Sequence record: NZ_CP035505.1
Source: a plasmid
DNA: 32,758 nt
Strand: one strand, 5' to 3'
Part shown: piece by piece, positions 14,097 through 32,276 of the stretch
Position numbering within the stretch: the first letter of the stretch is position 1
Layout: every line of letters starts with the position of its first letter
Position numbers and translations under genes: made by a program
Notes under the pieces: generated by a model
What the model saw: the letters and a program-made list of their open reading frames with translations, nothing else
Told to the model about the DNA's origin: nothing
The model's database searches: none

Positions 14097-14912
14097 TCAT
14101 TCGGTCCGGTCGCTCTGTGAGTCGTCGGTTTCGATTTGATGGGTGCACTGCCGAGCGTACTCGGCCGGGGGTAGGTAGCCGAGCGATGAGTGCCGACGCT
14201 GATGGTTGTACTCGGTCTTCCAGTCGCCGATCACGACCTGGGCGTGCAGCAGTGAGTAGAAGCTGTTGATGTTGAGGCACTCGTCGCGGAGGCGGCTGTT
14301 GAACGATTCGACGTATCCGTTGTGCCAGGGCGAGCCGGGCGGGATGTAGAACAGGCCGGTGCGGGTACCCGCCCAGTCGGCCATCGCGTCGCTGATGAAC
14401 TCGGGCCCGTTGTCGCTGCGGAGCACACCCGGTGCACCGCGGACGGCGACGAGCTCTTCGAGGTGGGCGGTGAGCCGGTCGGCGGTGATCGACCGCTCCA
14501 CGAGCCCGCCGATGCATTCGCGGGTGTGCTCGTCGACGATGGAGCAGATCTTGATCGGGCAGCCCCGCTCGTCGGCGTCGAACTGGAAGTCCACCGCCCA
14601 TACGAGGTTCGGTGCGACTGCCGCCGGGGCGTCGACGGTCGAGGATCCGACACGCTTGCGGCGTCGCCGCTGCGGGACGCGGAGGCCTTCGGCTCGCCAG
14701 AGGCGTTGGATCTTCTTGTGGTTGACCGCCCAGCCCTCACCCCGGGCGTCGTGATACGCCCGCCGGTACCCGTAGCGGGGATGCTTCTTCGCCCACGCGC
14801 GCAGCCAGTCTCGCAACGCGCGATCAGGGTCGGCGACCGTGTCGCCCTTGAGCGGGCGACGGTATGCGGACCTGCTCAGCCCGGCCAGACGGCACGCCAT
14901 CCGCTCGCTCAC
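14097..14912 (-). CDS. IS3-family transposase OrfB (copy D, diverged)
   Basis: Homologous to 2935-3750. The frame is open further upstream (to 15149), consistent with OrfAB fusion. Confidence 0.8.
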   Translation of the reverse strand: MSERMACRLAGLSRSAYRRPLKGDTVADPDRALRDWLRAWAKKHPRYGYRRAYHDARGEGWAVNHKKIQRLWRAEGLRVPQRRRRKRVGSSTVDAPAAVAPNLVWAVDFQFDADERGCPIKICSIVDEHTRECIGGLVERSITADRLTAHLEELVAVRGAPGVLRSDNGPEFISDAMADWAGTRTGLFYIPPGSPWHNGYVESFNSRLRDECLNINSFYSLLHAQVVIGDWKTEYNHQRRHSSLGYLPPAEYARQCTHQIETDDSQSDRTE

Positions 14913-14962
14913 CTGCAGTGTCCTGATCAGGTGCGAGACGGCGGCGCGGCGCCTGCCCGGGC

Positions 14963-15247
14963 CTAGAAGTTTCCCTCGGCCAGCTCCTTGAGCGCGGCCT
15001 TCTCCAGCTCCGCTTCGGCCAGCAACCGCTTGAGCGTGGCGTTCTGCTTCTCCAGCTCCTTCAGGCGCTTCGCGTCGTCGGCCTTCAGTCCGCCGTACTG
15101 GTTCCGCCACCGGTAATACGTCTGCTCGGATATCCCAAGCTCCCGACACACCGCGGCGATGTCGCTACCGCCCGCGAGCATCCTGTCGGCCTGCCCGAGC
15201 TTACGGACGACCTGCTCCGGGGTGTGACGCTTCCTGCTGTTCGACAT
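14963..15247 (-). CDS. IS3-family transposase OrfA (copy D, diverged)
   Basis: MSNSRKRHTPEQVVRKLGQADRMLAGGSDIAAVCRELGISEQTYYRWRNQYGG...; ATG 83 bp inside the IRL as in the other copies. Confidence 0.8.
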   Translation of the reverse strand: MSNSRKRHTPEQVVRKLGQADRMLAGGSDIAAVCRELGISEQTYYRWRNQYGGLKADDAKRLKELEKQNATLKRLLAEAELEKAALKELAEGNF

Positions 15248-15524
15248 GATCTGACCAGTCTCCCTGCCCGGACCCACGGGCGACAGGACGACTCCCAGAA
15301 CCACCGGACCTAAAAAACGGGGTCAGCCCAGGCCCCCTCATCGAATACGGGATCACCCACGGCGCCCGCCGCATCGTTTATCCCGCGCGCAGCGAGTGGG
15401 ACTACACCATCTGACTAGAGACGAGCGGGCCTGGTAACCCAGGCCCGCTCGCACACACGGACCAAGAACCACCCTGGTCCGACACGTATTTTCCCACACC
15501 GTACGATATGGAGGGGGGTGACCC

Positions 15525-15896
15525 ATGGACGAGTTCTTCGAGTACGCAGAGCACCAGCTCAGCCAGCCGCCGGCGCCGCAGGACTACATCGCCGGATTCA
15601 CCCTGTATGCCGTGAGCCGGCCATGCGACCAAATTTCCATCGCCTTGTCCGAGGCGGTGGACGAGCTGCACCGGCTCGAGGATCAGCTACACAAGGATCA
15701 GCAGCGTCTAGCAACCACCCGCGGCCGGCGCGCGTCCATCCAAGGCACCTCTGCATCCCATCAGGTCAGCCGCTGCCCGCGTCGGTGGTATGACCCCCGT
15801 GACTGGTTCAAGGCACCTCACTACGTCGTCACCCTCGTGGCCCGCTTCCAAGTCCGTGATACCGAGATAGACACTGGCGAGACTCCCCCTACGTGA
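15525..15896 (+). CDS. Hypothetical protein (123 aa)
   Basis: Strong RBS GGAGGGGGGTGA before ATG 15525, and protein-like composition. No family recognised. Confidence 0.5.
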   Translation: MDEFFEYAEHQLSQPPAPQDYIAGFTLYAVSRPCDQISIALSEAVDELHRLEDQLHKDQQRLATTRGRRASIQGTSASHQVSRCPRRWYDPRDWFKAPHYVVTLVARFQVRDTEIDTGETPPT

Positions 15897-16133
15897 CAGC
15901 CCATCGCCGTAACCCCGCAGGTTAGGCGTGCCGTAGAAACCCCCTGAACCACTCTCCCGGACCACAGCGGTACTGCACCACGGCCTATCAGCCCTGCCCG
16001 GCCGTGAGGAACGAGCGGCTGGGCAGGGTCGGGGGTCCAGCGCCCAGGGCTGGCGGGGGTTCGGGGCGCGGAGCCCCGTAACACGGCGGGACGATCCAAA
16101 AGGCTTCTTCTGGCCCAGGGGACGGTGTAACCT

Positions 16134-16161
16134 GATAAAATAATGCATGCATTATTTTATC
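16134..16161. promoter_or_regulatory. 28-bp perfect AT-rich palindrome GATAAAATAATGCATGCATTATTTTATC upstream of ssb
   Basis: Perfect palindrome read directly in the sequence, ending 17 nt before the ssb ATG. It is unusually AT-rich for this DNA and shares the core AATAATGCATGC...GCATTATT with the site at 25823-25845. Confidence 0.45.
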
Positions 16162-16177
16162 GGCGGAAGGAACACTT

Positions 16178-16600
16178 ATGAGCATCCCCGCAGCCTTGAC
16201 CGGGTTCGTTGGTGCCGAGCCCACAGTGCAGCACACCGAGTCCGGGAAGACGGTCACCCGGTTGCGCCTGGCGTGTAAAGACGAGTACCGCGACGCTACC
16301 GGGCAGTTCCAGGAGCGTGACACATTCTGGGTGGTCTGTGAAGGGTGGGGCCACGTAGCCGAGGCCATGGCCACCTACTCGAAGGGAACCGCCCTGATCG
16401 TCGTCGGTCAGTGGCGCCAGTCCGACTATGAGGCGGATGGGCAGAAACGCTCAGCTCGTTTCGTCGCAGTCACCGCAGCCGGCGTCAATGATGCGATCCC
16501 TTCTCGGTCGAGTGATGCCGCTAAAGCGGCATCATCGCAGGAGGACCACCATGCCGATGAGGCTTCCGAGGGGGAGGCCGCCGAGGAAAATCCGCTGTGA
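16178..16600 (+). CDS. ssb: Single-stranded DNA-binding protein (SSB), plasmid/conjugation-associated
   Basis: 140 aa with an OB-fold-like N-terminal ~110 aa (…TVTRLRLACKDEYRD…FWVVCEGWGHVAEA…ALIVVGQWRQSDYEADGQKRSARFVAV…) and an acidic C-terminal tail DEASEGEAAEENPL. RBS GGAAGGAACAC. Confidence 0.7.
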   Translation: MSIPAALTGFVGAEPTVQHTESGKTVTRLRLACKDEYRDATGQFQERDTFWVVCEGWGHVAEAMATYSKGTALIVVGQWRQSDYEADGQKRSARFVAVTAAGVNDAIPSRSSDAAKAASSQEDHHADEASEGEAAEENPL

Positions 16601-17706
16601 AAACGTCCAAGGACACCAAGAGCCCCGGAGCATGGCGGACCTTCAAGGCGCTGGTGTTGAACCTGCCAGATCCGGAGGTTCCCTCCCTAGCGGATCGACT
16701 CAAAGGAAGAACGCCGAGCGCCAAGACTGGGACGCCGCCGCCGGCACCTTCTGAGAAGCCCTCGGCGTGGTCCGCGGCCGCGGCGCAGGCGCGGCCTGCA
16801 TCGCCTGAGCCGGCGGAGGAAGAAGAAACGCTGTGGGAGGCCGTGATCCCGTCCGCTAAGTCCTCGCGGTGGAAGCGATTCGTGCGCTGGTCAGCTATCG
16901 GCTTGATTCTCCTGTTCTTGTGGATTGGTCTCCGTGCAGCGATCTTCGGAGTCAACAGCAACACCACCCCGCAAGAAGTTCCGCTCACGGCGACCTTCAA
17001 CCACGGACAAGCCGCCGGCACCGCCCAGCGATTCACGGTCGCGTACCTGAGCTGGGACGAGGCGAACAAAGACCAACGGGCAAAGAACATGAGCCCGTGG
17101 TACTCGGGAGGCAACGCGCCGGCTGAACTGGGATGGGATGGGCACGGCAAGCAAACGGCTCAGAACGCCACAGTCCGTAACGTGGAGCCACTGGATAAAG
17201 ACCACGCTCGAGTCATGGTCACCGCCGACGTCACGCCCTACCAAAAGGGCAAGGCGCAGCCGACCCAGACCCAAACGCTCGAAGTGAAGGTTCAGGTGAC
17301 CGAGGACGGCAGCGCCGTCTACGGGGCACCAGGTGTAGTGGGCAACCCCCAACCGATCACCGCGACCGAGGCCGAGGACAACACCCCCAACGATTCCGTA
17401 CTGTCCCAGCAAACCAAACCCGAAGCACAGACCTTCTTCACCAGCTACGGGTCAGAGACCGACCTTGCATCCATCACCGCCCCCGGGGCGATGGTGCAGG
17501 GATTGGGTGGCGCCCTCAAAGACCCGAAGCTCCGTGAGTGGACGGTCAAGAACGGTGCCGAGGATCACCGCGCGGCGCGCGCGGTCGTGCAGTGGACGAC
17601 CAAAAGCGGCGCGAAGTCACAACAGACCTACGAGCTGAAACTCGTGAAGGTCAGTGGCGGTCAATCTGCCAAATGGCAGGTTGAAACAATCAATGGAACG
17701 GAGTAA
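16597..17706 (+). CDS. Bitopic membrane protein of conjugation apparatus (TcpC/VirB8-position-like)
   Basis: GTG start overlapping the ssb stop. Disordered Pro/Ala-rich N-terminus, one TM helix (IGLILLFLWIGLRAAIFGV), then a ~250-aa extracytoplasmic domain. Architecture and position match TcpC-like proteins of Gram-positive T4SSs. Confidence 0.5.
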   Translation: MKTSKDTKSPGAWRTFKALVLNLPDPEVPSLADRLKGRTPSAKTGTPPPAPSEKPSAWSAAAAQARPASPEPAEEEETLWEAVIPSAKSSRWKRFVRWSAIGLILLFLWIGLRAAIFGVNSNTTPQEVPLTATFNHGQAAGTAQRFTVAYLSWDEANKDQRAKNMSPWYSGGNAPAELGWDGHGKQTAQNATVRNVEPLDKDHARVMVTADVTPYQKGKAQPTQTQTLEVKVQVTEDGSAVYGAPGVVGNPQPITATEAEDNTPNDSVLSQQTKPEAQTFFTSYGSETDLASITAPGAMVQGLGGALKDPKLREWTVKNGAEDHRAARAVVQWTTKSGAKSQQTYELKLVKVSGGQSAKWQVETINGTE

Positions 17707-17710
17707 GAAC

Positions 17711-17938
17711 ATGACTGATCTTTCAGGTGTCAAGGATTGGGCAATCCTCACCGTCGGCAATTTGTTCATCATCATCTTGCTGATCCGCGTCATAGGCGCA
17801 TGGGCCAAGCGCGAATGGGGTGACCTGTTCACCAACCTGGTGGTCGCGGTCATTATCGCTTTCCTGGTCTACGCCAACGACTCCGCGGTGGCCCTGCTCA
17901 AGCAGTTGGCCAACCTCGCCTTCGGAACCGGATCGTAA
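17711..17938 (+). CDS. Small membrane protein (two TM helices), T4SS accessory (TcpD/pilin-like position)
   Basis: RBS GGAACGGAG before ATG 17711. 75 aa with two hydrophobic helices (ILTVGNLFIIILLIRVIGAWA; LVVAVIIAFLVYA). The longer ORF-track start at 17654 overlaps the upstream gene and is rejected. Confidence 0.5.
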   Translation: MTDLSGVKDWAILTVGNLFIIILLIRVIGAWAKREWGDLFTNLVVAVIIAFLVYANDSAVALLKQLANLAFGTGS

Positions 17939-17947
17939 GGACAGCTC

Positions 17948-18583
17948 ATGAGCACGTACAAGGCGCGGGTCGTCACCAAGCAATTCAAGATCGAGACCCG
18001 CCAACACGAGCTGTTCGGTCTAGATCTCGGAGAGGGCCCGCGCCGGCGCGACCTAGGACTTGGGCTGATCATCATTCCCGTCTGGGTCGGCTTCATGTGG
18101 CTACTACTGGGACCGCCCGAGAAGTACACGATGCTGCTGTACATGGCCCCGCCCGTGCTGATGCTCATGTACGGCATTCAGGAAAACAGCTCCAATCCGC
18201 GGAGGATGAACGCCACCGTGTGGTTGCTGACCTTGCGTTATGGCCTGGTGGGACACCGCCCCATCATCCGCGGGGGAGCCAGGCCGGCCAGCCGCCAGGA
18301 GTACATCTCGTTTACTGATCGGTGGCCCATCCACCGCATCGCCCCAGCTCTCGGAATGAAGCACCTGGTAAATACGGACGGCACGCTGAACTGGACCGAG
18401 GTAGCGAACATCCCCGGTCTGGGCTGGACCGCTCGCTACGCAACACGTGATCACGACCGCTCCAAACGCCCGTCCGGGCCGCCGGTAGCGATGCGACCCA
18501 CCGTCTACCTCTACTCCACTGAGGAAATCGCAGCGGTCGCTCATCGACAAAAAGCCAAGCGGGAGAAGAAGACGAAAGCATGA
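17948..18583 (+). CDS. Membrane protein of T4SS (VirB3/TcpE-like position, two TM helices)
   Basis: 211 aa. The hydrophobic hairpin LGLGLIIIPVWVGFMWLLLGPPEKYTMLLYMAPPVLMLMYGI sits immediately upstream of, and overlapping by ATGA, the VirB4-like ATPase. That is the typical VirB3-VirB4 arrangement. Confidence 0.5.
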   Translation: MSTYKARVVTKQFKIETRQHELFGLDLGEGPRRRDLGLGLIIIPVWVGFMWLLLGPPEKYTMLLYMAPPVLMLMYGIQENSSNPRRMNATVWLLTLRYGLVGHRPIIRGGARPASRQEYISFTDRWPIHRIAPALGMKHLVNTDGTLNWTEVANIPGLGWTARYATRDHDRSKRPSGPPVAMRPTVYLYSTEEIAAVAHRQKAKREKKTKA

Positions 18584-21147
18584 AAATCACCAAGCGCATC
18601 AAGGCACTGGTTGGCTTCGATGAGGCCCGCCAGGCCCCGCCGCCGGCCTACCACACCATCACCGACGGGCTACTGATCACTGCGACAAAAGCTGAGGCGT
18701 GGTATGACCTCGCCACTGCCAATCTCGATACAGCCACGACCGACGAGAAGCTCGACAACCTCGATGCCGTGATGACCGCTGTAGGGAAGGCCCTGGGAGA
18801 CCGTCACTGTCACCTCAAGCTCATGTGGGGCCGATACGACGGGCGCGCGTACTACGAGGATGTGCAGAACCTCTACGACGGCGGTTTGGGCGAGGGTCGG
18901 AAGTGGGCCCAGATGTGGGCCGAGCGTATCGACGCGCTGGGGCTGCCCGAACGTCATCTCATGCTGGGGGTGACCATCGAGCTACGCGGGGGAGCCGCTG
19001 CCGCCAGCGTGAAACGCACCGCCAACGCCGCGGTGGGGGAAAACCCCGACCGGCTCAGCGATAAGGAGCTGGCGGATTACCAGATCATCGCCCGGCGCAT
19101 CATGAAGGCCCTGGGCTCGTGCCCGTTGCGCGCCCGGCAGGCGACCGCGGAAAAAATCGCCTGGATGATCGGTCGCGAGACCGCCCGGGTCAAGCAGACT
19201 GTGCCCCGAGACGGGCAGATCAAGGGCGCCCGTCTCTCACACCTGCTCTCGTCCAAAGCGGTGCCCTATGCCGATCACCTGGAAGTCCTCACTGAATCCG
19301 GGGAGGTTGGGATGTACACCGCGGTGCTGCCGATCATTGACTTTCCCGACGAGTACGAAATCCCGGGGGAAGCCGAGTGGCTACGCACACTTTCGACGAT
19401 CACCAAGCTGGCCGAGACCGGTACGGACGAGGCCGGAGAACCGATCTTCGAGGAAGTGCCGGTATTTGCCGATGCTTCCGTACGCTTCCAAGGAGTGCCC
19501 CGCCGGGCGGCGCTGAAAATGGCCGACGAGGCCCGCCGCACGGCCAAGGAGCAGCGCCGCTCCGCTGCGAAGCATTCCGCCGGGGAAGTATCGACCGAGG
19601 TTGAGGACGCCGAGACCGACAACGAGCAGCTCAAGGTCGATATCAAGCGCAACGGCACGTCTCTGGTCGTGCATCACCCGCGGCTGATCGTCACGGCCAC
19701 CTCCAAGGAGGATCTCGAGGACAACGCCCAAGCTCTCATCAACCATTACGCGGACTTGGGAATCACGGTGACCCGCGGGGAAGACGAGCAACGCGACTTC
19801 TGGCTTGAGCTGCTTCCTGGCGACGCACTAAGAGTGTCCGACCTAGGCCAAACCGTCACCGATGTCGCCTTCTGGGGCTCGTTCTTCTGGGCTGGGTCCA
19901 AGGTGGGCGACGCCCACGGCGGCATCAGCGGCATGACCACAGGCACCACCGCCAGCCTGTTCCGCTCCAACGTGCTCGGAGCCGCCGACCGCGGCGACAC
20001 CACGACCACCCTCTACGGCGGCCGGTCAGGTCGAGGTAAATCCACCGCCATGATGATCGAGCTGCTCAGCGCCATTCAGGAGGGCCCCGAACCGGCGTGG
20101 GCGACCTTGGTCGACGCCAAGGGTGACCTTGGTGGGCTCATCAGCGTGTGCGAAACCTTGGGCATCCCTAACGGCCTGGTGCAGATCGATGAGAAGAACA
20201 GCGGCGCCGCCGACATGTTCCGGGCCGTGGAGCCGGCCGCGGCGCCGGCCGCGGTGCAGCGTCAGCTCGCGCTCATGGCTATGGACGCCGACCACGTCGC
20301 AATCGCGGCGTCCTCCACGCTGCGCTACGCCACCGAGGAAGCCAAGGAATCCGACACCCCATCAACCTATGGAGTGATCCAGCGGATGATGCGAGATGAG
20401 GAAAAGCCCGTTGCATCCTTCGGCCGTTATCTCAACGATCTGGCCGAAGACCCGCTGGGCAAGATCGTCTTGGGACCGCCCACCGGCGAGACGTTCCTGA
20501 CGGATCAGGCAGGGCTGTGGCTGCTGCAAGTTCCCCGGCTGTCGCTGCCCGACGCCCACAGCATGCAAAGTGACTGGGATGCCTACAACCGGCTGTCCAT
20601 GGCGGTGCTGCAAGGCATCACCACCTACGCCCTGGCCATTTCATCGTCCAAGCCGCTGCGCTCCCGTCGTAAGGGCGTGGCGATCCCGGAATGTCACCTG
20701 TTCCTCAACGCCCACGGCGGGGCAGGGTTCCTCGATCAAATCGCGCGTATGGGACGCGCGTTCAACACGTCCTTGATCCTCGATACCCAGGACTGTACCT
20801 CTATCGCGGAGGTTCCCGGACTGGTCGAACAACTTCAAGGAGTGCGGATCTTCCAGCTCACGTCGGAGCAACAGCAAGATGCGGCGTCCAAGCTGCTGGG
20901 CTTGAAGCCAGACGCCAGCACCCGGCGCATGATTCACGGACTGGCGCGCATCGAGGGCGCCGATGTGCTTCGCAAGGGACACGCCCTGGTGCGCGACTGG
21001 TTGGAGAACGTGGCCACCGTCCAATTTGATTACCCCTCACCGGAGGTAGCCGAGGCCATGAGCACAGACCCGAACGCGAAATCCAACCGGTACGTCGAAG
21101 ATCCCGAGGATGCAGAATCCCTCACCACCCAGGAGGTCATGGCATGA
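18580..21147 (+). CDS. VirB4/TcpF-like conjugative T4SS ATPase
   Basis: 855 aa. Walker A GGRSGRGKST and a hydrophobic-D/Q Walker B-like LILDTQD. Its size and position in a cluster with VirB6-like, hydrolase and coupling protein genes support the call. Confidence 0.7.
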   Translation: MKITKRIKALVGFDEARQAPPPAYHTITDGLLITATKAEAWYDLATANLDTATTDEKLDNLDAVMTAVGKALGDRHCHLKLMWGRYDGRAYYEDVQNLYDGGLGEGRKWAQMWAERIDALGLPERHLMLGVTIELRGGAAAASVKRTANAAVGENPDRLSDKELADYQIIARRIMKALGSCPLRARQATAEKIAWMIGRETARVKQTVPRDGQIKGARLSHLLSSKAVPYADHLEVLTESGEVGMYTAVLPIIDFPDEYEIPGEAEWLRTLSTITKLAETGTDEAGEPIFEEVPVFADASVRFQGVPRRAALKMADEARRTAKEQRRSAAKHSAGEVSTEVEDAETDNEQLKVDIKRNGTSLVVHHPRLIVTATSKEDLEDNAQALINHYADLGITVTRGEDEQRDFWLELLPGDALRVSDLGQTVTDVAFWGSFFWAGSKVGDAHGGISGMTTGTTASLFRSNVLGAADRGDTTTTLYGGRSGRGKSTAMMIELLSAIQEGPEPAWATLVDAKGDLGGLISVCETLGIPNGLVQIDEKNSGAADMFRAVEPAAAPAAVQRQLALMAMDADHVAIAASSTLRYATEEAKESDTPSTYGVIQRMMRDEEKPVASFGRYLNDLAEDPLGKIVLGPPTGETFLTDQAGLWLLQVPRLSLPDAHSMQSDWDAYNRLSMAVLQGITTYALAISSSKPLRSRRKGVAIPECHLFLNAHGGAGFLDQIARMGRAFNTSLILDTQDCTSIAEVPGLVEQLQGVRIFQLTSEQQQDAASKLLGLKPDASTRRMIHGLARIEGADVLRKGHALVRDWLENVATVQFDYPSPEVAEAMSTDPNAKSNRYVEDPEDAESLTTQEVMA

Positions 21148-21572
21148 GCTACGCACCGTCCCCCATCACCCGCACAGCTCTTGTCGTGCCGCTGCTTGCG
21201 TGTGCGCTCGTGGGCTGTTCAGGCGACAAAGACGCCGCCGGCGACGCCGCGGTTCGATTCGTGCAGGGCACTTACGTGCAGCAATGCGAACTCACCCACC
21301 CTGACCGCGGCGGAGCGGCCACCAACTGCGATTCACGCAAGAACGAGTCCGTCTGGCCCGGACACCCCACAGAGATCACCGCCACGGAGGAATGGAAGGG
21401 CGGCTACGCGGTCACCATTCCCGACAGCACCGGAGCTCAAGACGTCTTCGGAATGCTCAAGGACGGCGAGCAATGGAAAGTCGCCAACTTCGACACCGTG
21501 GACGCACAAGACGCCGCCACCGATAATCCCGCCTGCCACGCGCTGAGCGAGGACGACGGGAAGGACTGCTAG
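21144..21572 (+). CDS. Lipoprotein (T4SS-associated)
   Basis: ATG overlaps the VirB4 stop (ATGA). The signal peptide ends in lipobox LVGC|SG. Confidence 0.6.
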   Translation: MSYAPSPITRTALVVPLLACALVGCSGDKDAAGDAAVRFVQGTYVQQCELTHPDRGGAATNCDSRKNESVWPGHPTEITATEEWKGGYAVTIPDSTGAQDVFGMLKDGEQWKVANFDTVDAQDAATDNPACHALSEDDGKDC

Positions 21573-21577
21573 AGACC

Positions 21578-23785
21578 ATGACGACGCCCACTTCTGTGCC
21601 CCCCGCCCCGCGCTGGGCTACCAAGACCCTCGCCTTCACCCAGATGATGTGGCGATACCTCCCCCTGGTGTACCTCGCGCGCATTCTGCGCGGGATGACT
21701 GCGCGGCAGTGGAAAATTTTCGCCGTCGTCTTCACCCTGACCTTCCTACTCGGCACGGGCATGGCAGTAGCCGCCGACGACAACGCCGGCAGCGCGGACA
21801 TGGGCTGGTCCAGCTTCGTGCCGCTTCAGGACTACTCACACGGCGGCGGCAAGACACTCGTGGAGGACATTCCCACCAGCCGCTACTTCATTGACGATGA
21901 GGTGGACGGGAACATCGTCAACGCGGTCACCGCGGCCGGCAACGGCCTCGCTGACACGCTGTTCATCACTACTGTGTCCATCGCCTGGGTCGTGGTGGCG
22001 ATCATCAGTTGGCTGCTGGGCACCAGCGACGTCGGCAATGACACCTTCAACCTGACCCAGCTCATCGGCAACGCCTCGGCCGAGACAATGGGGTGGCTGT
22101 TCCCCACCTGCTTGGCGATCGCCGCCGTTGCCGTGTGGGTTGATCACAGGCGAGAGCGCACCGGTCTCAACGGCATCTTCACCGTCTTGATCCTTGCGGT
22201 CATCGCCACAGGCTTCACCCTCTTCCCCGGGGTGTTCGTCAAGGGCCTCGAGACCGTGCGGGCCGGCGGCCAGGCCGTTGTTACGTCTGTGATGCCGGAG
22301 GACCAGACCGGCACCCAGTTGCCATTCGAGTACGGAAACCCGGACTACTCCCAGAACACCGACACCGAGGCATTCACCCGCCAGGTCACCGATACCGTCT
22401 GGCGCGCAGCGGTCGTCACCCCGTGGTGCATGGTGGAATTCGGCAGCATCGACGTGTGCCAGAAGTATGGCAAGGAGATGCTGACCCGCGCGTCCCGGGA
22501 TGAGCGCACCGATGACGTCATCAAGAAGCAGATGTACAAGGACGAGTCCATCGGTGGTAAGAACGGCGACGCCGGCCAATGGGTTCATGGAGAGATGTGG
22601 ACCCAACGCCTCGGTATGGCCGTGCTGGGCCTAGTGGTATGCCTACTGATGGTGTTTTTGGTGGCCACGCTCGTGTTCAGTGCCGTCATCGCCCTCGTGC
22701 AATCCCTGCTCCTGCTGGTCATGGGGGTGCTGTTCCTGGTCCTGGGGATGATCCCTGGGCCGCCTCGCCAGTGGTGCCGTAACTGGGCTGTGGCCCTGTC
22801 CGCGGCTGTCCTGGCAAACATCGTTTCCATGCTGCTGCTCGTGGTCGCTCTGGGCGCGATCACCACAATTTTCAGTAGCCCCGATGTGGTGTGGTTCAAG
22901 GCTTACGGGCTATCCATCCTCACCCTTCTGGCCGCGCTGGGAATCCGCAGCATGATCCAGCGGATCGTGGATTACCAAAGCGACGCCACCGGCGCCGGGG
23001 CCGGGGGGCGGATCATGCGCATGCTGATGATGCGCCAACTGTTCCGCGTCACCAATCGATCCCACAGCAAGACCGCCGCCCCCACAGGTGCAGGCAAGGG
23101 CCGATCCAGTGACAAGACGCGAAGCGCGCAGGCCGGCCCCACCGGGGCGGCCACACCGCGGCGCGGCAGTCGCGATGTGGTCTCCACACGGATCAGCCAG
23201 GCAAACAACCGCCGTCAGCCGGACGCACAGACCTCAACGGCACGGGGCGGCGCCCACGGCGCCGAGCGCGGAACGGCCGCCGAGACTCGTCATCAACGGG
23301 CCACCACCCGCGCCGGCTCGACGGCAGGAGCGCAACGCGCAGATCGGGCCCAGCACACGGCCGGCCGGCGCCAGGCCGCACAGGGCTCCCATGCCGCCCC
23401 CCAACGGCGTGGCGCGCCAGCCCAAGGCGACAGCAGCTCGCGCACGGAAACAGCACCTTCGCATGCAGCGCCTTCGCGTGCGGCAACCCACTCGGCTCCG
23501 CCCAGGCGTGGTGCGCCGGCCCAAGGCGGCAGCAGCTCGCGCACAGAGACAGCACCTTCACGCGCAGCATCCTCCCGGCCGAGCACGCAGCGGGACCGCA
23601 ACACGAGCGCGCCAGCGGCCGAAGCGCCGGGCGCTCGACCGGCGCCGCAGCCCAAGAAGCGACCGGACGCGCGCATTGATGCCGCCAGCGGGTTACGGGG
23701 CGGACCTCGCACCGTCGCACCGCGTCAAACGAAACCGAACCAGACTGAATCCCCCCGCCGTGCGCGTCAGACTAGGAAGGGCTAA
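21578..23785 (+). CDS. VirB6/TcpH-like polytopic membrane protein with long disordered Arg/Ala/Ser/Thr-rich C-terminal tail
   Basis: 735 aa with at least 6-8 hydrophobic helices in the first ~470 aa. The C-terminal ~260 aa are low complexity and contain a 33-aa tandem repeat. Large polytopic proteins of this kind follow VirB4 in Gram-positive T4SS loci. Confidence 0.55.
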   Translation: MTTPTSVPPAPRWATKTLAFTQMMWRYLPLVYLARILRGMTARQWKIFAVVFTLTFLLGTGMAVAADDNAGSADMGWSSFVPLQDYSHGGGKTLVEDIPTSRYFIDDEVDGNIVNAVTAAGNGLADTLFITTVSIAWVVVAIISWLLGTSDVGNDTFNLTQLIGNASAETMGWLFPTCLAIAAVAVWVDHRRERTGLNGIFTVLILAVIATGFTLFPGVFVKGLETVRAGGQAVVTSVMPEDQTGTQLPFEYGNPDYSQNTDTEAFTRQVTDTVWRAAVVTPWCMVEFGSIDVCQKYGKEMLTRASRDERTDDVIKKQMYKDESIGGKNGDAGQWVHGEMWTQRLGMAVLGLVVCLLMVFLVATLVFSAVIALVQSLLLLVMGVLFLVLGMIPGPPRQWCRNWAVALSAAVLANIVSMLLLVVALGAITTIFSSPDVVWFKAYGLSILTLLAALGIRSMIQRIVDYQSDATGAGAGGRIMRMLMMRQLFRVTNRSHSKTAAPTGAGKGRSSDKTRSAQAGPTGAATPRRGSRDVVSTRISQANNRRQPDAQTSTARGGAHGAERGTAAETRHQRATTRAGSTAGAQRADRAQHTAGRRQAAQGSHAAPQRRGAPAQGDSSSRTETAPSHAAPSRAATHSAPPRRGAPAQGGSSSRTETAPSRAASSRPSTQRDRNTSAPAAEAPGARPAPQPKKRPDARIDAASGLRGGPRTVAPRQTKPNQTESPRRARQTRKG
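23400..23590. repeat. ~99-bp tandem duplication (about 1.9 copies) inside the VirB6-like gene tail
   Basis: GGCGTGGCGCGCCAGCCCAAGGCGACAGCAGCTCGCGCACGGAAACAGCACCTTC... is repeated 99 bp later with a few substitutions. It encodes PRRGAPAQG(D/G)SSSRTETAPS. Confidence 0.5.
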
Positions 23786-23790
23786 CCCCC

Positions 23791-24528
23791 ATGGCACGTG
23801 ACGAACTGGAAGCCTTCGATGACCTCGAAGAATCTGAACCTGGCAGATCTAGCCACCAATGGCAGCCCCTGGAAGCTGAGCAGCAGGCGGCCCCTCCCTC
23901 ACGGCGCGGCCGCACCCTGCTCATCGTGGTGCTGGTGGCCGCCGTGGCCGCTTTGGTGGTGTGGCGTCTATGGCCCGAGGCAGCGACGCCGGCCGAGGGG
24001 GACACCGCCCCGGCGGCGGCGGTAGCCACCAGAGCCACCAGCTCCCCAACGTCCACCTACGTGGACGGCAATGGTCCCCAAGCAGTCGAAACCGCCGGCG
24101 CGCCGGCGCCGAGCCAGGTCTCGATCCCGGCGCCGGCGGCTCCCAAGGTCAAGACCAGTGACCCCGAATCGGTGACAAAAGCTTGGGTCAGCGCGATCAA
24201 CAACCGCGACACCGACAACTTGGATCAGGTGCAGGACTGGACCCAGCCCTATTCTGCGCTGCACGATCTGGACGACCTGGACCCATACGGCGACCACGGA
24301 GCCATGGGCGGTAAGGCCCCCACGGTTACCAAATCGGTGACGCTGACGAAGAAGCCAGACGCCAAGCCCGTCGACAGCTCCACACGCCGCACGCGTCTGG
24401 CCACCGTCGTGGTGCAGTCCCACACCGGGCAGCAAACAGAGCAACGCTGGACGATCAGCACCATGAAGGACGACACGACGTGGAAGGTCACGTCCGCGTC
24501 CCTGGATTCCTGGACCGGGAAGCAGTAA
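23791..24528 (+). CDS. Bitopic membrane protein (T4SS-associated hypothetical)
   Basis: RBS GGAAGGG. Acidic N-terminus, single TM (LLIVVLVAAVAALVVW), then a ~190-aa exported domain. Confidence 0.5.
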   Translation: MARDELEAFDDLEESEPGRSSHQWQPLEAEQQAAPPSRRGRTLLIVVLVAAVAALVVWRLWPEAATPAEGDTAPAAAVATRATSSPTSTYVDGNGPQAVETAGAPAPSQVSIPAPAAPKVKTSDPESVTKAWVSAINNRDTDNLDQVQDWTQPYSALHDLDDLDPYGDHGAMGGKAPTVTKSVTLTKKPDAKPVDSSTRRTRLATVVVQSHTGQQTEQRWTISTMKDDTTWKVTSASLDSWTGKQ

Positions 24529-24531
24529 ACG

Positions 24532-25824
24532 ATGCCGACCGGACGGGATATCGCAGGTCTCCTTGTACGCGGCATAGCCGCGAAGCTGCTGGGCAAGTGG
24601 CTCCTGATCCCGGCTGCGCTGCTCCTTGTGCTCGCGCTCCTATCTGTGGCCGTGCTGATGATGGGATCGGCAGGTCAAGACCAGTCCAGCCGCAGCAGCG
24701 GATGTGAAGCCCCCGGGCACAACTCTCAAGCGGTCAGTGCCAACAGCGGCACGTCCTACGGCGGCACCGCAAAAGATCAAGCCTCCCAAGTGGAAATCAT
24801 CAAGAAGATCGACGCCGGCGTAAAGGAGCTGGGCTACAGCGGCAAGGTCACCCGCCTGGTCTCCATCGCCGCCATGGGCGAAAGCACCCTGGAAAACATC
24901 AGCTATGGGGACAACGCCATAAACCCGGACGGCTCCGTGGCCGACTCCATCGGCATCTTGCAACAGCAATCCAACTGGGGCTCGAAAGAGCAGCGCATGG
25001 ACCCGAAAACCGCGGCCAAGCTGTTCGTGCTCGGCCCACATATGAAGGGCGGCGGTCTAGCTGACGTAGCCAACTGGGAAAGCCTGAGCGAGTCCGTAGC
25101 GATCAACAAAGTGCAGATCAACCAAGATCCGCTGCACTACGAGCGCGAAGGCCGCATCCAGTACACAGATCAGATCATCGCCAAGGCCGGCATCGACGTT
25201 TCTCGTTCCGGGAAGACTCACGGCGACGCTGCCACGGAGGCTGACGACGACCAGGCTGCATCCACCACGGACGAGCAGGACACGGACTTGTGCGCCGGCA
25301 GTGCGGCCGCCGGTCAACCCGGCGGAACCAGCGGGGGCAAGGATGATTACCCCATCACCGGCATTCCCGGTCCCTACGTCTACGTCGAGGACGGCGCCGG
25401 CTTCTACAAGGGCGAATGCACCAGCTACGCGATGTGGCGCTTGGCCAAGCATCTGGGAGCCAAGGACGCAAACACCGCCGCATGGCTCGTCGGTAACACC
25501 AAGGGCGGCAACGGGGCCAAGCTCGGGAACGGCGCGGAGTGGCGTGCCGGCTGGGAGGCGAGAGGCTGGACGGTCACAACGAAGCCCACAGCCAACTCCG
25601 TGGCGTGGTGGGGAGCCGGGGGCGCACAGGGAATTGGGTCCGCCGGCCATGTCGCCTGGGTGGACAAGGTTCAGGAGGACGGCAAGACGTTCGAGATCTC
25701 CGAGTACAACAACGAATATCTCGCGCCTCCCGGGCATAAGTACTCCCATCGCCCGGCCGTCACCATGGACAACCCCCAAGCGCCAAATGCATTCCTCGTC
25801 CCGCCGGCCAAGGATAAACTGTAA
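24532..25824 (+). CDS. Membrane-anchored peptidoglycan hydrolase with C-terminal CHAP (NlpC/P60-like) domain (TcpG/VirB1-like)
   Basis: N-terminal TM (LLIPAALLLVLALLSVAVLMMG). The C-terminal segment has the conserved Cys (GECTSYAMWR) and His (GHVAWVD) spacing of CHAP domains. A middle ~170-aa domain may be a second glycoside hydrolase-like module. Confidence 0.7.
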   Translation: MPTGRDIAGLLVRGIAAKLLGKWLLIPAALLLVLALLSVAVLMMGSAGQDQSSRSSGCEAPGHNSQAVSANSGTSYGGTAKDQASQVEIIKKIDAGVKELGYSGKVTRLVSIAAMGESTLENISYGDNAINPDGSVADSIGILQQQSNWGSKEQRMDPKTAAKLFVLGPHMKGGGLADVANWESLSESVAINKVQINQDPLHYEREGRIQYTDQIIAKAGIDVSRSGKTHGDAATEADDDQAASTTDEQDTDLCAGSAAAGQPGGTSGGKDDYPITGIPGPYVYVEDGAGFYKGECTSYAMWRLAKHLGAKDANTAAWLVGNTKGGNGAKLGNGAEWRAGWEARGWTVTTKPTANSVAWWGAGGAQGIGSAGHVAWVDKVQEDGKTFEISEYNNEYLAPPGHKYSHRPAVTMDNPQAPNAFLVPPAKDKL

Positions 25825-25845
25825 ATAATGCATGCAAGCATTATT
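25823..25845. promoter_or_regulatory. AT-rich near-palindrome AAATAATGCATGCAAGCATTATT upstream of the ParA-like gene
   Basis: Shares AATAATGCATGC / GCATTATT arms with the palindrome upstream of ssb. Lies between the hydrolase stop (25822-25824) and the RBS GAGAAGGAGA. Confidence 0.4.
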
Positions 25846-25859
25846 GAGAAGGAGACCTG

Positions 25860-27278
25860 ATGAACACGGCAACTGTTTCAGCCACCAAGGCGACGCTGAC
25901 CCTGGACGGGCAGCAGTACGACCAGGACGTGCCGGGGCTTGAGGACGCCCGCGTGGCCATTGTCCAGGCCGTGCACGAGCACGCCCGAAGCTATCCCTGT
26001 CGCATCGTCGTCACCGATCCCGAGGAAGGCGTCAGCGGGCTCGAGTTCGCAGAAGACGGCAGTGTGCAGCCGTTTGACCCCGACACGGAGACGTCCACTA
26101 AGGATGTCAGCTCGGACGCCGACACTACCCGGGAGCAAGCCGTCCCGGTCCTGTTGGACGACGATCACGACGACGAGCTGCTTCCTCCGGTGCCCACCCG
26201 TCCGCGCCGGCAGCGCGCGCGCCCGGCGCAGGCTCCCGCCGCGGAGGTGACGGAACAGGACGCTGGGCCGGTCGAGCAACAATCCGACGGGAAAGCGGAC
26301 GCCCCTGCGACCTTCCGGGGTTCTGAATCATCAGACGTTCCTAGTGCCAGTGATTTCTTTGCAACGAAACCTGCTACGGAAGAAGCGCCGGCGCAAAAAG
26401 GTTGGCGCGGTGCGCTTAATAGTTGGGGATTGCGCTTGGCTCCCAGCCAGGACGAGCTGGAAGAACGCGCAGCGACCCGCGACGTACAGCGCGGCGTCAC
26501 ATCGCACAAAACCGTGATGGTGGCCAACCTCAAGGGCGGGTCAGGTAAAACCACTGTCACTTATCTGTTGGCAGCGGTGCTGGGGCGGGTTCGAGGCGGG
26601 ACCGTGCTCGCATGGGACAACAACGAAAACCGCGGCACTTTGGCGTATCGGTCGCCTTATCGGGCAAACACGGCTAGTACGGCTATTGACTTGTTGCGCG
26701 AACAAGACTTCTTCGAGGGGTCCGGTCAGGTTGCCGAGTTGGTGAATTTTGTACGTCCCCAGGGGTCTAACAAATTTGATCTTCTCGCGTCCCAAGATCA
26801 GGGCAGCGACCGGCCGGTAATCGACGGGGAGGGTTTCGAATCGTTGCACTCCCTGCTGCAAACCTTCTACCGCATGATCATCGTTGATACGGGCAACGCA
26901 TCAAATGCAAGCACATGGCAGGCGGCCGCAAAGATCTCTGATCAAATCGTCATCGTGTGCGCCAATGCGGAAGACTCCGCCCAGACGGCGGCCGAAACCA
27001 TTGACGCACTGATTAAATCCGGTCACGGGGCGACGGTGAAAAATTCGGTTGCCCTTGTGGTTGATGCCCAGCCCCAACGAGATAAAGCGAAGCGGCAGGC
27101 AGCGGAACAGCGATTGCAGAGGATCACGGATCATTTCTCCCACCATGTGCGGGCTGTGCATGTCCTGCCATGGGAAACCACCCTGAATGACGGGGAGCGT
27201 ATCGAGTGGGAAAGTCTGTCGAAGCGCACCCATAAGGTAATGCTCAATGCGGCCGCGTCGATCATGAATGGGATGTAG
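25860..27278 (+). CDS. ParA/MinD-family ATPase with ~230-aa acidic disordered N-terminal extension
   Basis: C-terminal half has the deviant Walker A LKGGSGKTTVTYLLAAVLG plus IVDTGN (Walker B/switch-like). The N-terminal half is D/E/P-rich with no recognisable domain. Confidence 0.65.
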   Translation: MNTATVSATKATLTLDGQQYDQDVPGLEDARVAIVQAVHEHARSYPCRIVVTDPEEGVSGLEFAEDGSVQPFDPDTETSTKDVSSDADTTREQAVPVLLDDDHDDELLPPVPTRPRRQRARPAQAPAAEVTEQDAGPVEQQSDGKADAPATFRGSESSDVPSASDFFATKPATEEAPAQKGWRGALNSWGLRLAPSQDELEERAATRDVQRGVTSHKTVMVANLKGGSGKTTVTYLLAAVLGRVRGGTVLAWDNNENRGTLAYRSPYRANTASTAIDLLREQDFFEGSGQVAELVNFVRPQGSNKFDLLASQDQGSDRPVIDGEGFESLHSLLQTFYRMIIVDTGNASNASTWQAAAKISDQIVIVCANAEDSAQTAAETIDALIKSGHGATVKNSVALVVDAQPQRDKAKRQAAEQRLQRITDHFSHHVRAVHVLPWETTLNDGERIEWESLSKRTHKVMLNAAASIMNGM

Positions 27279-27320
27279 ACTGTACCCCGATAGGGGGACG
27301 GCAACCGGGGGGTTGAGGCA

Positions 27321-27558: not shown

Positions 27559-27741
27559 ATGTCTGAAGAATCTTCCCCGGCCGCCGATTACCAGCCGACC
27601 CGGGTCCAGGTCACCACACACATCTCCCTTGAAGCACGACGGGTTCTCGAACGCGCGAAAGCCGAGACGGGTAAATCCCTGGGGAGCCTGATGGATGAGT
27701 CAGTGCTGACTCATCTAGCGTCCTACCGCTCGCGTAGCTGA
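27559..27741 (+). CDS. Ribbon-helix-helix DNA-binding protein (candidate relaxosome accessory factor or antitoxin-like regulator)
   Basis: RBS AAGGAA before ATG 27559 (the ORF-track start at 27532 is rejected). 60 aa with the segment VQVTTHISLEARRVLERAKAETGKSLGSLMDESVL matching the RHH pattern. Followed by a terminator and the candidate oriT. Confidence 0.5.
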   Translation: MSEESSPAADYQPTRVQVTTHISLEARRVLERAKAETGKSLGSLMDESVLTHLASYRSRS

Positions 27742-27795: not shown

Positions 27796-27833
27796 GCTTT
27801 GCCCGTAGAGCGGTCAAGGGACAACCCACACCC

Positions 27834-28000
27834 GTAACATGAGGTGTAACATGACCTATAACATGCAATGTTATAGGCGACCCCCGGAACCCTGCCCCAC
27901 GAGACGCCAACTCGACCAAGACCACTCCCCCTCTTCGTCCCTCATCAGTGCAGTGGTCTTGGTCGAGTTGGCTTGGGGCAGGGTTCCGGGGGTCGAGTTG
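27834..28000. other. Candidate origin of transfer (oriT): three TAACATG direct repeats, a 10-bp-stem hairpin, and a ~40-bp imperfect inverted repeat with GTCGAGTTGG iterated
   Basis: GTAACATGA at 27834, 27845 and 27857, about one helical turn apart. Hairpin CCTATAACAT-gca-ATGTTATAGG at 27854-27876. Inverted-repeat arms 27880-27925 and 27951-27991 (CCCCCGGAACCCTGCCCCA...CCAACTCGACCAAGACCACT / AGTGGTCTTGGTCGAGTTGG..TGGGGCAGGGTTCCGGGGG), with a third GTCGAGTTGG at 27991-28000. Located between an RHH gene and a Replic_Relax-like gene adjacent to the coupling protein gene. Confidence 0.45.
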
Positions 28001-28797: not shown

Positions 28798-28798
28798 T

Positions 28799-32275: not shown

Positions 32276-32276
32276 C

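Follow-up and report, generated by a model that had tools for sequence, protein, structure and literature searches.

Plasmid layout and the two palindromic sites

The window, i.e., the whole stretch of DNA analyzed here, corresponds to the entire plasmid (32,758 bp, 65% GC) of Kocuria marina subsp. indica CE7. Pfam assignments gave the gene order ssb, TcpC, VirB4-like, VirB6-like, and CHAP, followed by ParA-like, Replic_Relax, T4CP, and ArdC-N, in agreement with the gene context given around both sites in a preliminary description of this DNA. The features considered in this study are as follows.

15978-16075, + strand: three GC-rich hairpins between orf123 and site 1
16105-16110, + strand: putative weak −35-like box TTCTTC, 17 nt upstream of the site 1 −10
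16128-16133, + strand: predicted −10 box TAACCT, followed by G, of the ssb/T4SS operon promoter
16134-16161, no strand: site 1 (S1), perfect 28-bp palindrome GATAAAATAATGCATGCATTATTTTATC
16165-16171, + strand: Shine-Dalgarno (SD) sequence GGAAGGA of ssb, read from the sequence
16178-16600, + strand: ssb, first gene of the T4SS operon
16178-25824, + strand: tightly packed T4SS operon, from ssb to the CHAP gene
25792-25797, + strand: −35-like box TTCCTC of the site 2 promoter
25815-25820, + strand: predicted −10 box TAAACT, internal promoter of the ParA-like/relaxase operon
25823-25845, no strand: site 2 (S2), near-palindrome AAATAATGCATGCAAGCATTATT
25849-25854, + strand: SD sequence AAGGAG of the ParA-like gene, read from the sequence
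25860-27278, + strand: ParA/MinD-like ATPase gene, head of the DNA-processing block
27559-27741: RHH gene in the DNA-processing block
27878-27995: oriT-like hairpin in the DNA-processing block, 50 pairs with an invariant loop
28102-28797: Replic_Relax gene
28745-30934: T4CP gene

The perfect palindrome before ssb and the near-palindrome before the ParA-like gene, both reported in the preliminary description, were confirmed as S1 and S2. S1 contains an 18-bp core, AATAATGCATGCATTATT (16139-16156), and the 14-mer AAATAATGCATGCA (16138-16151), which is invariant across all sites; its 3' end lies 16 nt from the ssb ATG (16178). S2 consists of the arms AATAATGC (25824-25831) and GCATTATT (25838-25845) separated by the spacer ATGCAA, with a 4-bp central insertion relative to both S1 and the S2 of K. 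atrinae, and its left 14-mer is identical to that of S1. This site overlaps the stop codon TAA of the CHAP-domain gene (25822-25824) and ends 14 nt before the ParA-like ATG (25860). No similarity between S1 and S2 was found outside the palindrome.

A search of the whole plasmid for the 12-mer AATAATGCATGC, as suggested in the preliminary description, identified S1 and S2 as the sole exact copies, while approximately 6e-4 exact copies would be expected by chance per window in DNA of 65% GC (an estimate from base composition). When up to two mismatches were allowed, four matches were obtained, corresponding to the arms of S1 and S2, against 0.84 expected, and 2 of 100 shuffled sequences reached four. 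A half-site scan of the whole window with up to one mismatch revealed no further copy, and neither search found the motif in the AT-rich stretch near 9.6 kb.

The three hairpins upstream of S1 (−75.9 kcal/mol, z −3.26) were conserved in relatives and are probably terminators of the upstream rep/par module. If so, the ssb operon would need its own promoter within the remaining ~90 bp.

Conservation of the sites and adjoining predicted promoter elements

The core of 14-18 bp before ssb was invariant in plasmids of K. indica, K. atrinae, and Micrococcus luteus, with flanks that were ~60% identical and rich in indels. Across the ~350-bp upstream regions of ssb, the 18-nt core was the only long invariant block, and the 14-mer was unchanged in seven site sequences from the three species. 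In a search of one genome each of 185,579 species, the sole GC-rich matches were two K. atrinae plasmid contigs, at exactly homologous positions; the remaining matches were at chance level. Dyad symmetry was also retained: five of the six distinct sites were perfect palindromes of 16-28 bp, and the S2 of K. indica kept both 8-nt arms with four extra central bases, an insertion present in all four contigs seen. Beyond the core, the symmetry was extended with different bases at different sites, reaching 28 bp in K. indica S1, 22 bp in K. atrinae S2, and 20 bp in M. luteus.

S2 was present before the ParA-like gene in K. indica and K. atrinae, two copies that may reflect a single event, and neither M. 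luteus nor the more distant relatives had it. Only three lineages were available for this comparison. The M. luteus plasmid carried S1 only, on a 22.6-kb stretch (L151) of a 27.4-kb contig that spans the whole mating-channel module. The preliminary description had named absence of the motif from homologous loci as an argument against its function; the motif was retained in close relatives, and at VirB4 identities of about 58% or below it was replaced by a different AT-rich palindrome at the same place. In these distant relatives, the near-palindrome AATATAACTAATTATATT occupied the same spot before the ssb SD, and most of these relatives also carried an adjoining divergent ArsR-type wHTH gene.

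A conserved TAnnCT-G hexamer was located 3-9 nt upstream of every palindrome copy, against a background of 1.6% for TANNNT within 14 nt. The hexamer of S1, TAACCT, has the counterparts TACTCT in K. atrinae and TAGACT in M. luteus and was, besides the palindrome, the only conserved block of the proximal upstream region (invariant T289, A290, C293, T294, and G295). A TTCnnn box was found 17 nt above the −10 in five of the six distinct sites, K. atrinae S1 being the exception; in addition to TTCTTC of K. indica S1, the boxes TTCCCA, TTCCAA, TTCCTC, and TTCCTG were found at this spacing in four of the other five. At S2, the hexamer is formed by the last CHAP codons (GAT AAA CTG). The codons used there (GAT/GCT AAA CTG) are the less used ones, and relatives without S2 encode the same C-terminus as GAC AAG CTC.

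Three repeated promoter cassettes on the same plasmid, before ardC-N, orf82, and DUF3560, have the hexamer GTAGACT or GTAAACT, preceded at a distance of 17 nt by TTGTGT or TTGAAT, and the TAnnCT hexamer was also observed ahead of ssb in Rothia L116. The palindrome was missing from all three cassettes and from the L116 ssb promoter. The actinobacterial sigma-A consensus has been described as TAnnnT with a weak −35 and a spacer of 3-11 nt from the −10 to the start (PMC3890552). A scan with the consensus sigma-70 model detected no promoter at S1 or S2, and the −35 TTCTTC did not pass; the −10 and −35 boxes are predictions made from their conservation and by comparison with other promoters on this plasmid.

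Nature of the palindromic element

In both operons, the palindrome lies just downstream of the −10-like hexamer and directly upstream of the SD. The conserved TAnnCT-G would predict a transcription start at or inside the left arm. Because the predicted −10 is a separate upstream hexamer that also heads promoters without the palindrome, the palindrome would cover the predicted start from about −3 to +20, a classic position for a repressor. We infer both the transcription start and repression. Since the palindrome has this position in front of two conjugation operons and its core is kept unchanged in related Micrococcaceae plasmids, it is most likely a repressor binding site. We favor, with a probability of roughly 0.55, the reading that each palindrome is an operator overlapping the start of a sigma-A-type promoter and bound by a sequence-specific, probably dimeric protein; the element is real but, as a means of plasmid control, of an ordinary kind. 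Among the observations against an operator is the 4-bp insertion in K. indica S2, which a rigid dimer would be expected to tolerate poorly. Common repressor operators had already been proposed in the preliminary description. A shared cis-element at two transfer operons is supported by the invariant core with its diverged flanks, and the geometry fits an operator. The common repressor is hypothetical, as no cognate gene could be identified on the complete plasmid.

The predicted unit would comprise a weak −35 (TTCnnn), 17 bp, the −10 (TAnnCT then G), 2-8 nt, the core AAATAATGCATGCATTAT(T), 1-10 nt, the SD, and the start codon. A protein covering about −3 to +20 might block open-complex formation or promoter escape. 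S1 would then govern the mating-channel operon from ssb to CHAP, and S2, possibly a later acquisition in the Kocuria lineages, would add an internal, co-regulated promoter for the ParA-like/RHH/relaxase/coupling-protein block.

It is decidedly unlikely that the palindrome itself is the core promoter, with its left half AATAAT (or TAAAAT/TAAATA) as the −10, no dedicated regulator, and a symmetry that is incidental or due to back-to-back −10 boxes. The palindrome is indeed the most AT-rich patch of the ~90 bp that separate the SD from the upstream hairpins, AATAAT matches TATAAT at five of six positions, and a start ~7 nt downstream would leave an SD-containing leader in every site. However, TAAAAT and TAAATA are site-specific, so that the −10 role suggested for them in the preliminary description was not supported; AATAAT is the only hexamer common to the inside of the palindromes, and it lacks the −12 T and a −35 at 16-18 nt. 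A hexamer would suffice for a promoter, but the invariant part extends over 14-18 nt, with the GC-containing center GCATGC and the whole right arm, and a better, conserved TAnnCT hexamer just upstream is the −10 of palindrome-free promoters on the same plasmid. Mirror-image −10 boxes would also produce overlapping face-to-face transcripts, an arrangement of little sense within the CHAP gene. The palindrome is thus probably not the −10 box.

The position of every copy 1-10 nt ahead of an SD could point instead to an element acting in the RNA, as a stem-loop or AU-rich translation enhancer 5' of the SD, for 5'-end stability, as a processing mark, or for ribosome loading on ssb and the ParA-like gene. 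The S1 and S2 of K. indica and the S2 of K. atrinae fold better than shuffled sequences (z −3.2, −2.1, and −2.0, respectively), the insertion in K. indica S2 would merely enlarge the loop with both arms kept, and the arms are extended symmetrically by different bases at different sites. Nevertheless, two of the five folds do not surpass those of shuffled sequences, with z −0.1 for K. atrinae S1 and z +0.8 for M. luteus S1 (centroid about −4 kcal/mol), the invariant core alone forms a weak hairpin, and the core shows no compensatory change, i.e., the sequence is conserved and not just the pairing. The predicted S2 start lies inside the left arm, so that an mRNA initiated there would lack the stem, and no Rfam family matches the element. 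An RNA-level role therefore appears unlikely. An intrinsic terminator was rejected, with no terminator-like site at S1 or S2 and stems that are AT-rich. The RNA-hairpin, terminator, and ssDNA-promoter readings are poorly supported.

A structural DNA signal, i.e., a hairpin of the transferred strand acting as a mini ssDNA promoter or priming site to express ssb early in the recipient, a cruciform, or a site that serves recombination or marks a module boundary, seems very unlikely, even though the perfect palindrome adjoins ssb, a typical early or leading-region gene, and S1 and S2 of K. indica bracket the 9.7-kb mating-channel module. A hairpin of 18-28 nt leaves no room for −35 and −10 boxes, and the conserved −10 is not part of it. 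M. luteus has S1 only across the whole module, which indicates that the copies are not obligate module-flanking repeats; the likeness of S1 and S2 also stops at the palindrome, and the oriT-like hairpin at 27878-27995 is a far better candidate for oriT or structured DNA. Frpo elements of F-like leading regions are long, imperfect hairpins of more than 100 nt, in whose stem the −35 and −10 boxes are rebuilt. The Kocuria element resembles Frpo/ssi in being a self-complementary element before a plasmid ssb; an ssDNA promoter of this type was rejected by its length and by the −10-like hexamer outside the self-complementary part. Finally, a functionless relic of chance or neutral AT-rich sequence would fit with only two copies per plasmid and the lack of an identified binder, but exact copies are scarcely expected per window and the core is invariant in three species at orthologous positions with diverged flanks. 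We consider this reading to have next to no probability, as conservation effectively refutes it.

T4SS-type conjugative plasmids of Micrococcales are almost unstudied, and our literature search found no paper on their regulation; the motif center ATGCATGCAT occurred in none of the papers listed by that search. The analysis provides a testable regulatory map for one plasmid family, with two promoters with predicted −10 boxes, a common 18-bp putative operator, and constitutive-looking sister promoters without it, and it offers a route to the factor switching transfer on. The pair of sites may also be a small natural example of an operator spreading to a second operon, which challenges no current concept.

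Candidate binding proteins and comparison with known systems

Pfam and protein scans of the complete plasmid revealed no dedicated HTH repressor in the backbone. The DNA-binding folds of the backbone were limited to two or three RHH proteins and the wHTH domains of Rep and of the relaxase, each with a more obvious target, and no TraN-like protein was identified on the plasmid; the structure model of orf123 had no PDB match. The recognition helix of the relaxase wHTH, CSEQVARRRLR, is shared unchanged by the three lineages that bear the motif and differs in those that lack it, which would equally fit oriT recognition. The candidate binders are the winged helix of the Replic_Relax relaxase and a chromosomal Micrococcaceae regulator. 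It is possible, as a tentative version, that the operator has no dedicated plasmid repressor and is read by one of these two, the latter resulting in host-gated conjugation, and that the Kocuria lineages evolved a new promoter and operator inside a 33-nt spacer and the last CHAP codons. If the relaxase winged helix binds, the DNA-processing module would feed back on the mating-channel operon and on its own operon; the relaxase gene lies within the operon that S2 would control. Less probably, self-complementarity would matter in its own right, through a cruciform or a hairpin of the incoming single strand, and this would account for the tolerance of 4 extra bp in the loop and for the symmetric extension of the arms.

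A precedent for this layout is pIP501 (Inc18, Enterococcus), a plasmid with a Gram-positive-type T4SS operon. Its repressor TraN has one short, specific site at Ptra, the main transfer promoter, and another at PtraNO, an internal promoter within the block of transfer genes; the close relative pRE25 lacks the latter site (PMC6158623), just as M. luteus lacks S2. The TraN sites differ from the Kocuria palindrome in sequence and do not have perfect dyad symmetry, because TraN, a protein with an internal-dimer fold, binds in monomeric form (PMC6158623). The position is also different: at Ptra, the original TraN site is found upstream of oriT, whereas the Kocuria palindrome overlaps the predicted start.

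In IncP plasmids (RP4/RK2), the KorA, KorB, and TrbA operators are identical short palindromes at several promoters, allowing coordinate repression of transfer and maintenance operons. The Kocuria element is similar as a short palindrome repeated at promoters of a conjugative plasmid and differs in having only two copies, an actinobacterial host, and an unrelated sequence; the Pfam scan of the plasmid proteins revealed no korA, korB, or trbA homologues, and hence no regulon of the IncP Kor type. Among actinomycetes, pIJ101 KorA/KorB and pSAM2 KorSA repress transfer genes via palindromic operators overlapping promoters, and such kil-kor plasmids use TraB/FtsK-type dsDNA transfer with GntR-type or other Kor proteins. 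The Kocuria plasmid, in contrast, has a T4SS and no Kor-type gene.

In Rothia nasimurium (NZ_CP056082), L121, and L124, an AT-rich near-palindrome and a divergent ArsR-type wHTH gene are located upstream of ssb, and in Rothia sp. HC945 (L116), the ArsR-type gene is present with a different inverted repeat. An ArsR/SmtB-type operator with an adjacent regulator was rejected for the Kocuria plasmid, as tblastn with the ArsR-like regulators of L116 and L121 detected no homolog in the window, L002, or L010. The Rothia-type dyad differs in sequence (AATATAACTAATTATATT or ATATACATAATTATAT), adjoins a candidate regulator gene, and has no second copy before the ParA-like gene. It shares with the Kocuria palindrome its place, directly ahead of the ssb SD where the homologous T4SS operon begins, and its form, an AT-rich dyad of 18 bp set in DNA of higher GC content.

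Palindromes upstream of ssb and the ParA-like gene

The two AT-rich palindromes reported in the preliminary description, before ssb and before the ParA-like gene, were found as described when the sequence was read. S1 is GATAAAATAATGCATGCATTATTTTATC, a perfect 28-bp palindrome at 16134-16161, with 16 nt between its end and the ssb ATG at 16178. S2 is AAATAATGCATGCAAGCATTATT at 25823-25845, a near-palindrome sharing bases with the TAA stop codon of the CHAP-domain gene (24532-25824) and leaving 14 nt to the start codon of the ParA-like gene (ATG at 25860). The window is the entire circular plasmid of Kocuria marina subsp. indica CE7 (32,758 bp), with exact protein matches to QBJ22765, QBJ22769, and QBJ22774, and the sites occupy the following places in it.

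Features of the plasmid, in map order (backbone assigned by Pfam and tblastn)
328-1494, rep; Pfam/tblastn
1517-2167, parA; Pfam/tblastn
2170-2397, ParG-like ribbon-helix-helix (RHH) gene; Pfam/tblastn
about 2.5-15.3 kb, IS3-family and IS256-family insertions with cargo; Pfam/tblastn
2564-3750, 7311-8497 (reverse) and 10435-11621, three copies of an IS3-family element (orfA/orfB)
5068-6216, alpha/beta hydrolase, cargo bracketed by IS elements
8718-9356, TetR, cargo bracketed by IS elements
9411-10118, DUF417 membrane protein, cargo with TetR, bracketed by IS elements
11449-11937, MsrB/SelR, cargo bracketed by IS elements
12314-13561, IS256/Mutator-family transposase
14097-15304, further IS3-family element
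15525-15896, orf123, followed by GC-rich hairpins and then S1
after S1, tightly packed operon of ssb, TcpC, orf75, orf211, VirB4-like, orf142, VirB6-like, orf245 and CHAP genes; Pfam/tblastn
25860-27278, ParA-like gene, directly after S2
27559-27741, RHH gene before the relaxase gene, followed by a long hairpin
28102-28797, Replic_Relax relaxase
28745-30934, T4CP
31319-31741, ArdC-N, followed by small genes

The proposed search of the whole replicon for the 12-mer AATAATGCATGC returned copies at S1 and S2 alone. With up to two mismatches, the window scan retrieved just the four arms of S1 and S2 (0.84 matches expected), and a half-site scan of the window with at most one mismatch gave no additional site. 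Exact copies were estimated at about 6e-4 per window in DNA of 65% GC, and therefore the two copies are not attributable to chance.

No close relatives of the region were detected in PLSDB by megablast or blastn; tblastn against PLSDB gave relatives at ≤58% identity only, and a metagenome scan with a TcpC profile just relatives at ≤38%. Proteins of this plasmid are carried by roughly 50-90 metagenomic contigs. Relatives gathered by protein searches and contig look-ups formed clade A (62-100% VirB4 identity) and clade B (50-58%). Clade A includes K. indica-type contigs (L120, L129, and L130), K. atrinae-type sequences (Logan contigs L002-L009 and NZ_AJXN01 contigs 58 and 65, i.e., L014 and L022), M. 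luteus-type sequences (L010, L126-128, L151, and L152), and a fourth lineage represented by a single sample (L131, with 62% VirB4 identity, and L123). Clade B consists of the Rothia nasimurium plasmid L001, Rothia sp. HC945 (L116), L117, L121, and L124.

S1 was present with an unchanged core in all three clade-A species whose ssb upstream region is available, within ...ccagAAATAATGCATGCATTATCtAGGAGG... in K. atrinae and within ...cgaaAATAATGCATGCATTATTcgAGGAGG... and ...gtggAAATAATGCATGCATTATTTgacgAGGAGG... in M. luteus. When these three regions were aligned over 350 bp (mean identity of 60%, many indels), the core was the sole long invariant block. S2 was found in all K. indica-type contigs, with the centre AAGC, or ACGC in L120, and in K. 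atrinae as TAAATAATGCATGCATTATTTA, a perfect palindrome of 22 bp that lacks the 4-bp insertion, and AAATAATGCATGCA was unchanged in seven of seven site sequences. Thus, the expectation that the motif occurs at homologous loci of relatives held for S1 in K. indica, K. atrinae, and M. luteus and for S2 in the two Kocuria species, but failed for S2 in M. luteus, where it is missing on the very contig bearing S1, as well as in L126-128, L123, and every clade-B element.

A motif pattern scan of 185,579 species (one genome each) gave 104 matches versus about 87 estimated by chance; the GC-rich actinobacterial matches were two K. atrinae plasmid contigs only, and the others were at chance level. Six matches to a 17-mer in IMG/VR all lay in contigs of 33-43% GC, and were therefore regarded as chance. 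In the literature searched, we found neither a paper on these plasmids nor the motif centre ATGCATGCAT.

The palindrome is very probably a functional cis-element of some kind, and we assign the operator reading a probability of about 0.55. The common repressor of the transfer genes proposed in the preliminary description is hypothetical, and none of the candidates examined was identified as such a protein. Functionally, the closest documented case is TraN of pIP501, with sites at the main transfer promoter and an internal promoter, the second of which is missing in a near relative. IncP Kor operators and actinomycete kil-kor systems work the same way. No sequence or protein match links it to any of these families, and so the palindrome represents a further case of a known element type; it is real and conserved, yet not surprising.

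Predicted promoters and alternative readings of the palindrome

The S1-region alignment contained a second, small conserved block, T-A-n-n-C-T-G, with the hexamer TAACCT in K. indica (16128-16133), TACTCT in K. atrinae, and TAGACT in M. luteus. The S2 hexamer was TAAACT in both Kocuria species (25815-25820 in the window), and the distance from the hexamer end to AATAAT was 3, 5, or 9 nt. TANNNT occurs in 1.6% of 14-nt windows of the plasmid. The same hexamer precedes ssb in Rothia L116 (gggaTAGACTg), and G plus the TAnnCT hexamer also heads gene starts without a palindrome elsewhere on the plasmid. Sigma-A promoters mapped in Corynebacterium glutamicum have TAnnnT, a weakly conserved −35, and a gap of 3-11 nt to the start (PMC3890552). 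By our own reading, five of the six distinct S1/S2 sites carry a weak TTCnnn box separated from the downstream hexamer by exactly 17 nt, although it failed the strict consensus promoter/terminator scan, which returned nothing at S1 or S2.

The final CHAP-gene codons form the S2 hexamer, as GAT AAA CTG in the window and GCT AAA CTG in K. atrinae. In relatives that lack S2, the identical ...(D)KL terminus is written GAC AAG CTC. AAA makes up 30% of Lys codons in these genes, GAT 35% of Asp codons, and GCT 13% of Ala codons, which lends modest support to the hexamer being under selection. If the hexamers serve as −10 boxes, transcription would start at the left edge of the palindrome or within its left arm, and the palindrome would therefore span about −3 to +20.

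The alternative in the preliminary description, that the palindromes are themselves −10-like promoter elements, is probably incorrect: the conserved TAnnCT lies outside and upstream of them, AATAAT is the only hexamer common to the sites, a −35 at the right distance from it is missing, and the conserved stretch is far larger than one hexamer. An RNA hairpin is poorly supported as well. Folding is good for the extended S1 of K. indica (−16.6 kcal/mol, z −3.2) but not for the invariant core alone, with z values of −0.1 and +0.8 for S1 of K. atrinae and M. luteus. Moreover, the core shows no covariation, the predicted S2-initiated transcript lacks the left arm, and an Rfam search gave no match. 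For a terminator, both a GC stem and a T tract are missing, and this reading is poorly supported. Similarly, a single-stranded DNA promoter, oriT, or module boundary is poorly supported, as the element lacks the necessary length, the predicted −10 falls outside the self-complementary stretch, M. luteus carries a single copy only, and a far better oriT candidate exists elsewhere (the hairpin at 27878-27995). Nevertheless, the K. indica S2 insertion widens the centre alone, and the arms are extended symmetrically by different bases at different sites, which still favour some role for self-complementarity.

In addition, an upstream ORF from the ATG within the palindrome was set aside because its frame is not conserved, and the known actinobacterial boxes ARG box, Fur/Zur, and ArsR 12-2-12 do not fit in spacing.

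Candidate binding proteins

No palindrome binder was identified among the plasmid regulator candidates or by a search for ArsR-type homologs. The orf123 product was set aside, having seven relatives among 1.84 billion representative proteins and a homolog in the motif-less L116; AF2 predicts a beta-alpha-beta-beta fold for it (pLDDT 79), to which the PDB holds no match. The N-terminal domain of the ParA-like protein was modeled by AF2 as a small beta-sheet/one-helix domain followed by a 100-residue disordered linker, and so differs from the HTH found in type Ia ParA. The DNA-reading beta-strand of the ParG-like RHH protein (2170-2397) varies among the motif-bearing lineages, and its target is probably the CCGGTA repeats. 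The RHH protein encoded before the relaxase gene (27559-27741) has the same beta-strand in elements lacking S2, and probably targets the 12-bp-spaced GTAACAT repeats beside the oriT-like hairpin. TetR (8718-9356) lies within the IS-flanked cargo segment missing from relatives.

The three motif-bearing species share one wHTH recognition helix in Replic_Relax, CSEQVARRRLR, and in clade B this helix differs. The pattern is compatible with a regulatory role of the kind documented for pIP501 and lactococcal-plasmid relaxases (PMC6158623; PMC10873654), and oriT recognition explains it equally well. A host factor is also a possible binder.

Most clade-B plasmids (L001, L116, L121, and L124) carry an ArsR-type wHTH gene upstream of and divergent from ssb. 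An AT-rich near-palindrome, AATATAACTAATTATATT or ATATACATAATTATAT, directly precedes the ssb Shine-Dalgarno sequence (SD) in L001 (9595-9610), L117 (1550-1569), L121 (546-562), and L124 (551-567); the ArsR-type gene adjoins it in L001, L121, and L124, and L116 has the gene with a different inverted repeat. No homolog of this regulator was found in the window, L002 (K. atrinae-type), or L010 (M. luteus-type). The gene and near-palindrome are likely a regulator-operator pair that was replaced in the Kocuria/Micrococcus clade.

Probable oriT, repeated leaders, and backbone

The most notable side observation is an oriT-like hairpin of about 120 nt between the RHH and Replic_Relax genes (window, 27878-27995; K. 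atrinae-type L022, 4453-4580; M. luteus-type L151, about 20005-20132; clade-B L117, about 12855-12990). Across these four lineages, representing both clades, 27 of its 50 predicted pairs have compensatory double changes and the loop TCTTCGTCCCTCATC is invariant; as a structure, it is supported much more strongly than the palindromes. Direct GTAACAT(G) repeats with 12-bp spacing precede it (27830-27877). The hairpin is probably oriT; its loop would hold the nick site, and the adjacent repeats would bind RHH/relaxase.

Upstream of ardC-N, a Cys-rich 82-aa ORF (orf82), and a DUF3560 gene lie three near-identical promoter-leader cassettes (31233-31318, 31841-31925, and 32275-32359), of which the second and third match fully across 54 nt. 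Each comprises TTGTGT or TTGAAT, exactly 17 nt, GTAGACT (at 31258, 31866, and 32300, with no palindrome), then a leader that includes the hairpin GGGGGAGGGAAAGACCCCC, and finally an SD and ATG. With a homologous cassette containing GTAAACT in K. atrinae (L022, ~7946), this looks like a repeated leading-region expression unit. Two cassettes are preceded by a GC hairpin, CGGCCGGGGGAGCTACTCCCCCGGCCG, and then a GC-rich palindrome (31757-31816 and 32193-32240), and TATGCCGGCACGCCGGCGTGCCGGCATA at 31789-31816 is a perfect GC-rich 28-mer palindrome. The DUF3560-like ORF from 32360 crosses the record junction of the circular plasmid in frame with the 13-213 ORF, whose C-terminal part looks like a ribbon-helix-helix domain similar to an 80-aa protein that M. 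luteus encodes upstream of rep.

The IS elements jointly break the backbone, separating parG/orf100 from orf123. A GC-rich multi-hairpin region without T tracts (15978-16075; RNA fold −75.9 kcal/mol, z −3.3) lies between the rep/par module and S1 and is conserved in L002 (~3190-3340) and L010 (~3920-4000); its hairpins are presumed to be actinobacterial-type, factor-independent terminators. CCGGTA(T) repeats and palindromes cluster beside the parA/ParG-like genes in all three species (window, 1486-1534; L002, 3088-3135; L151, 7158-7195), probably forming a partition centromere or par operator. Finally, the ParA-like gene ends in a stop codon overlapped by GTAGACTG (27275-27282), a possible additional promoter for the RHH gene that follows; K. 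atrinae and M. luteus do not conserve this sequence.
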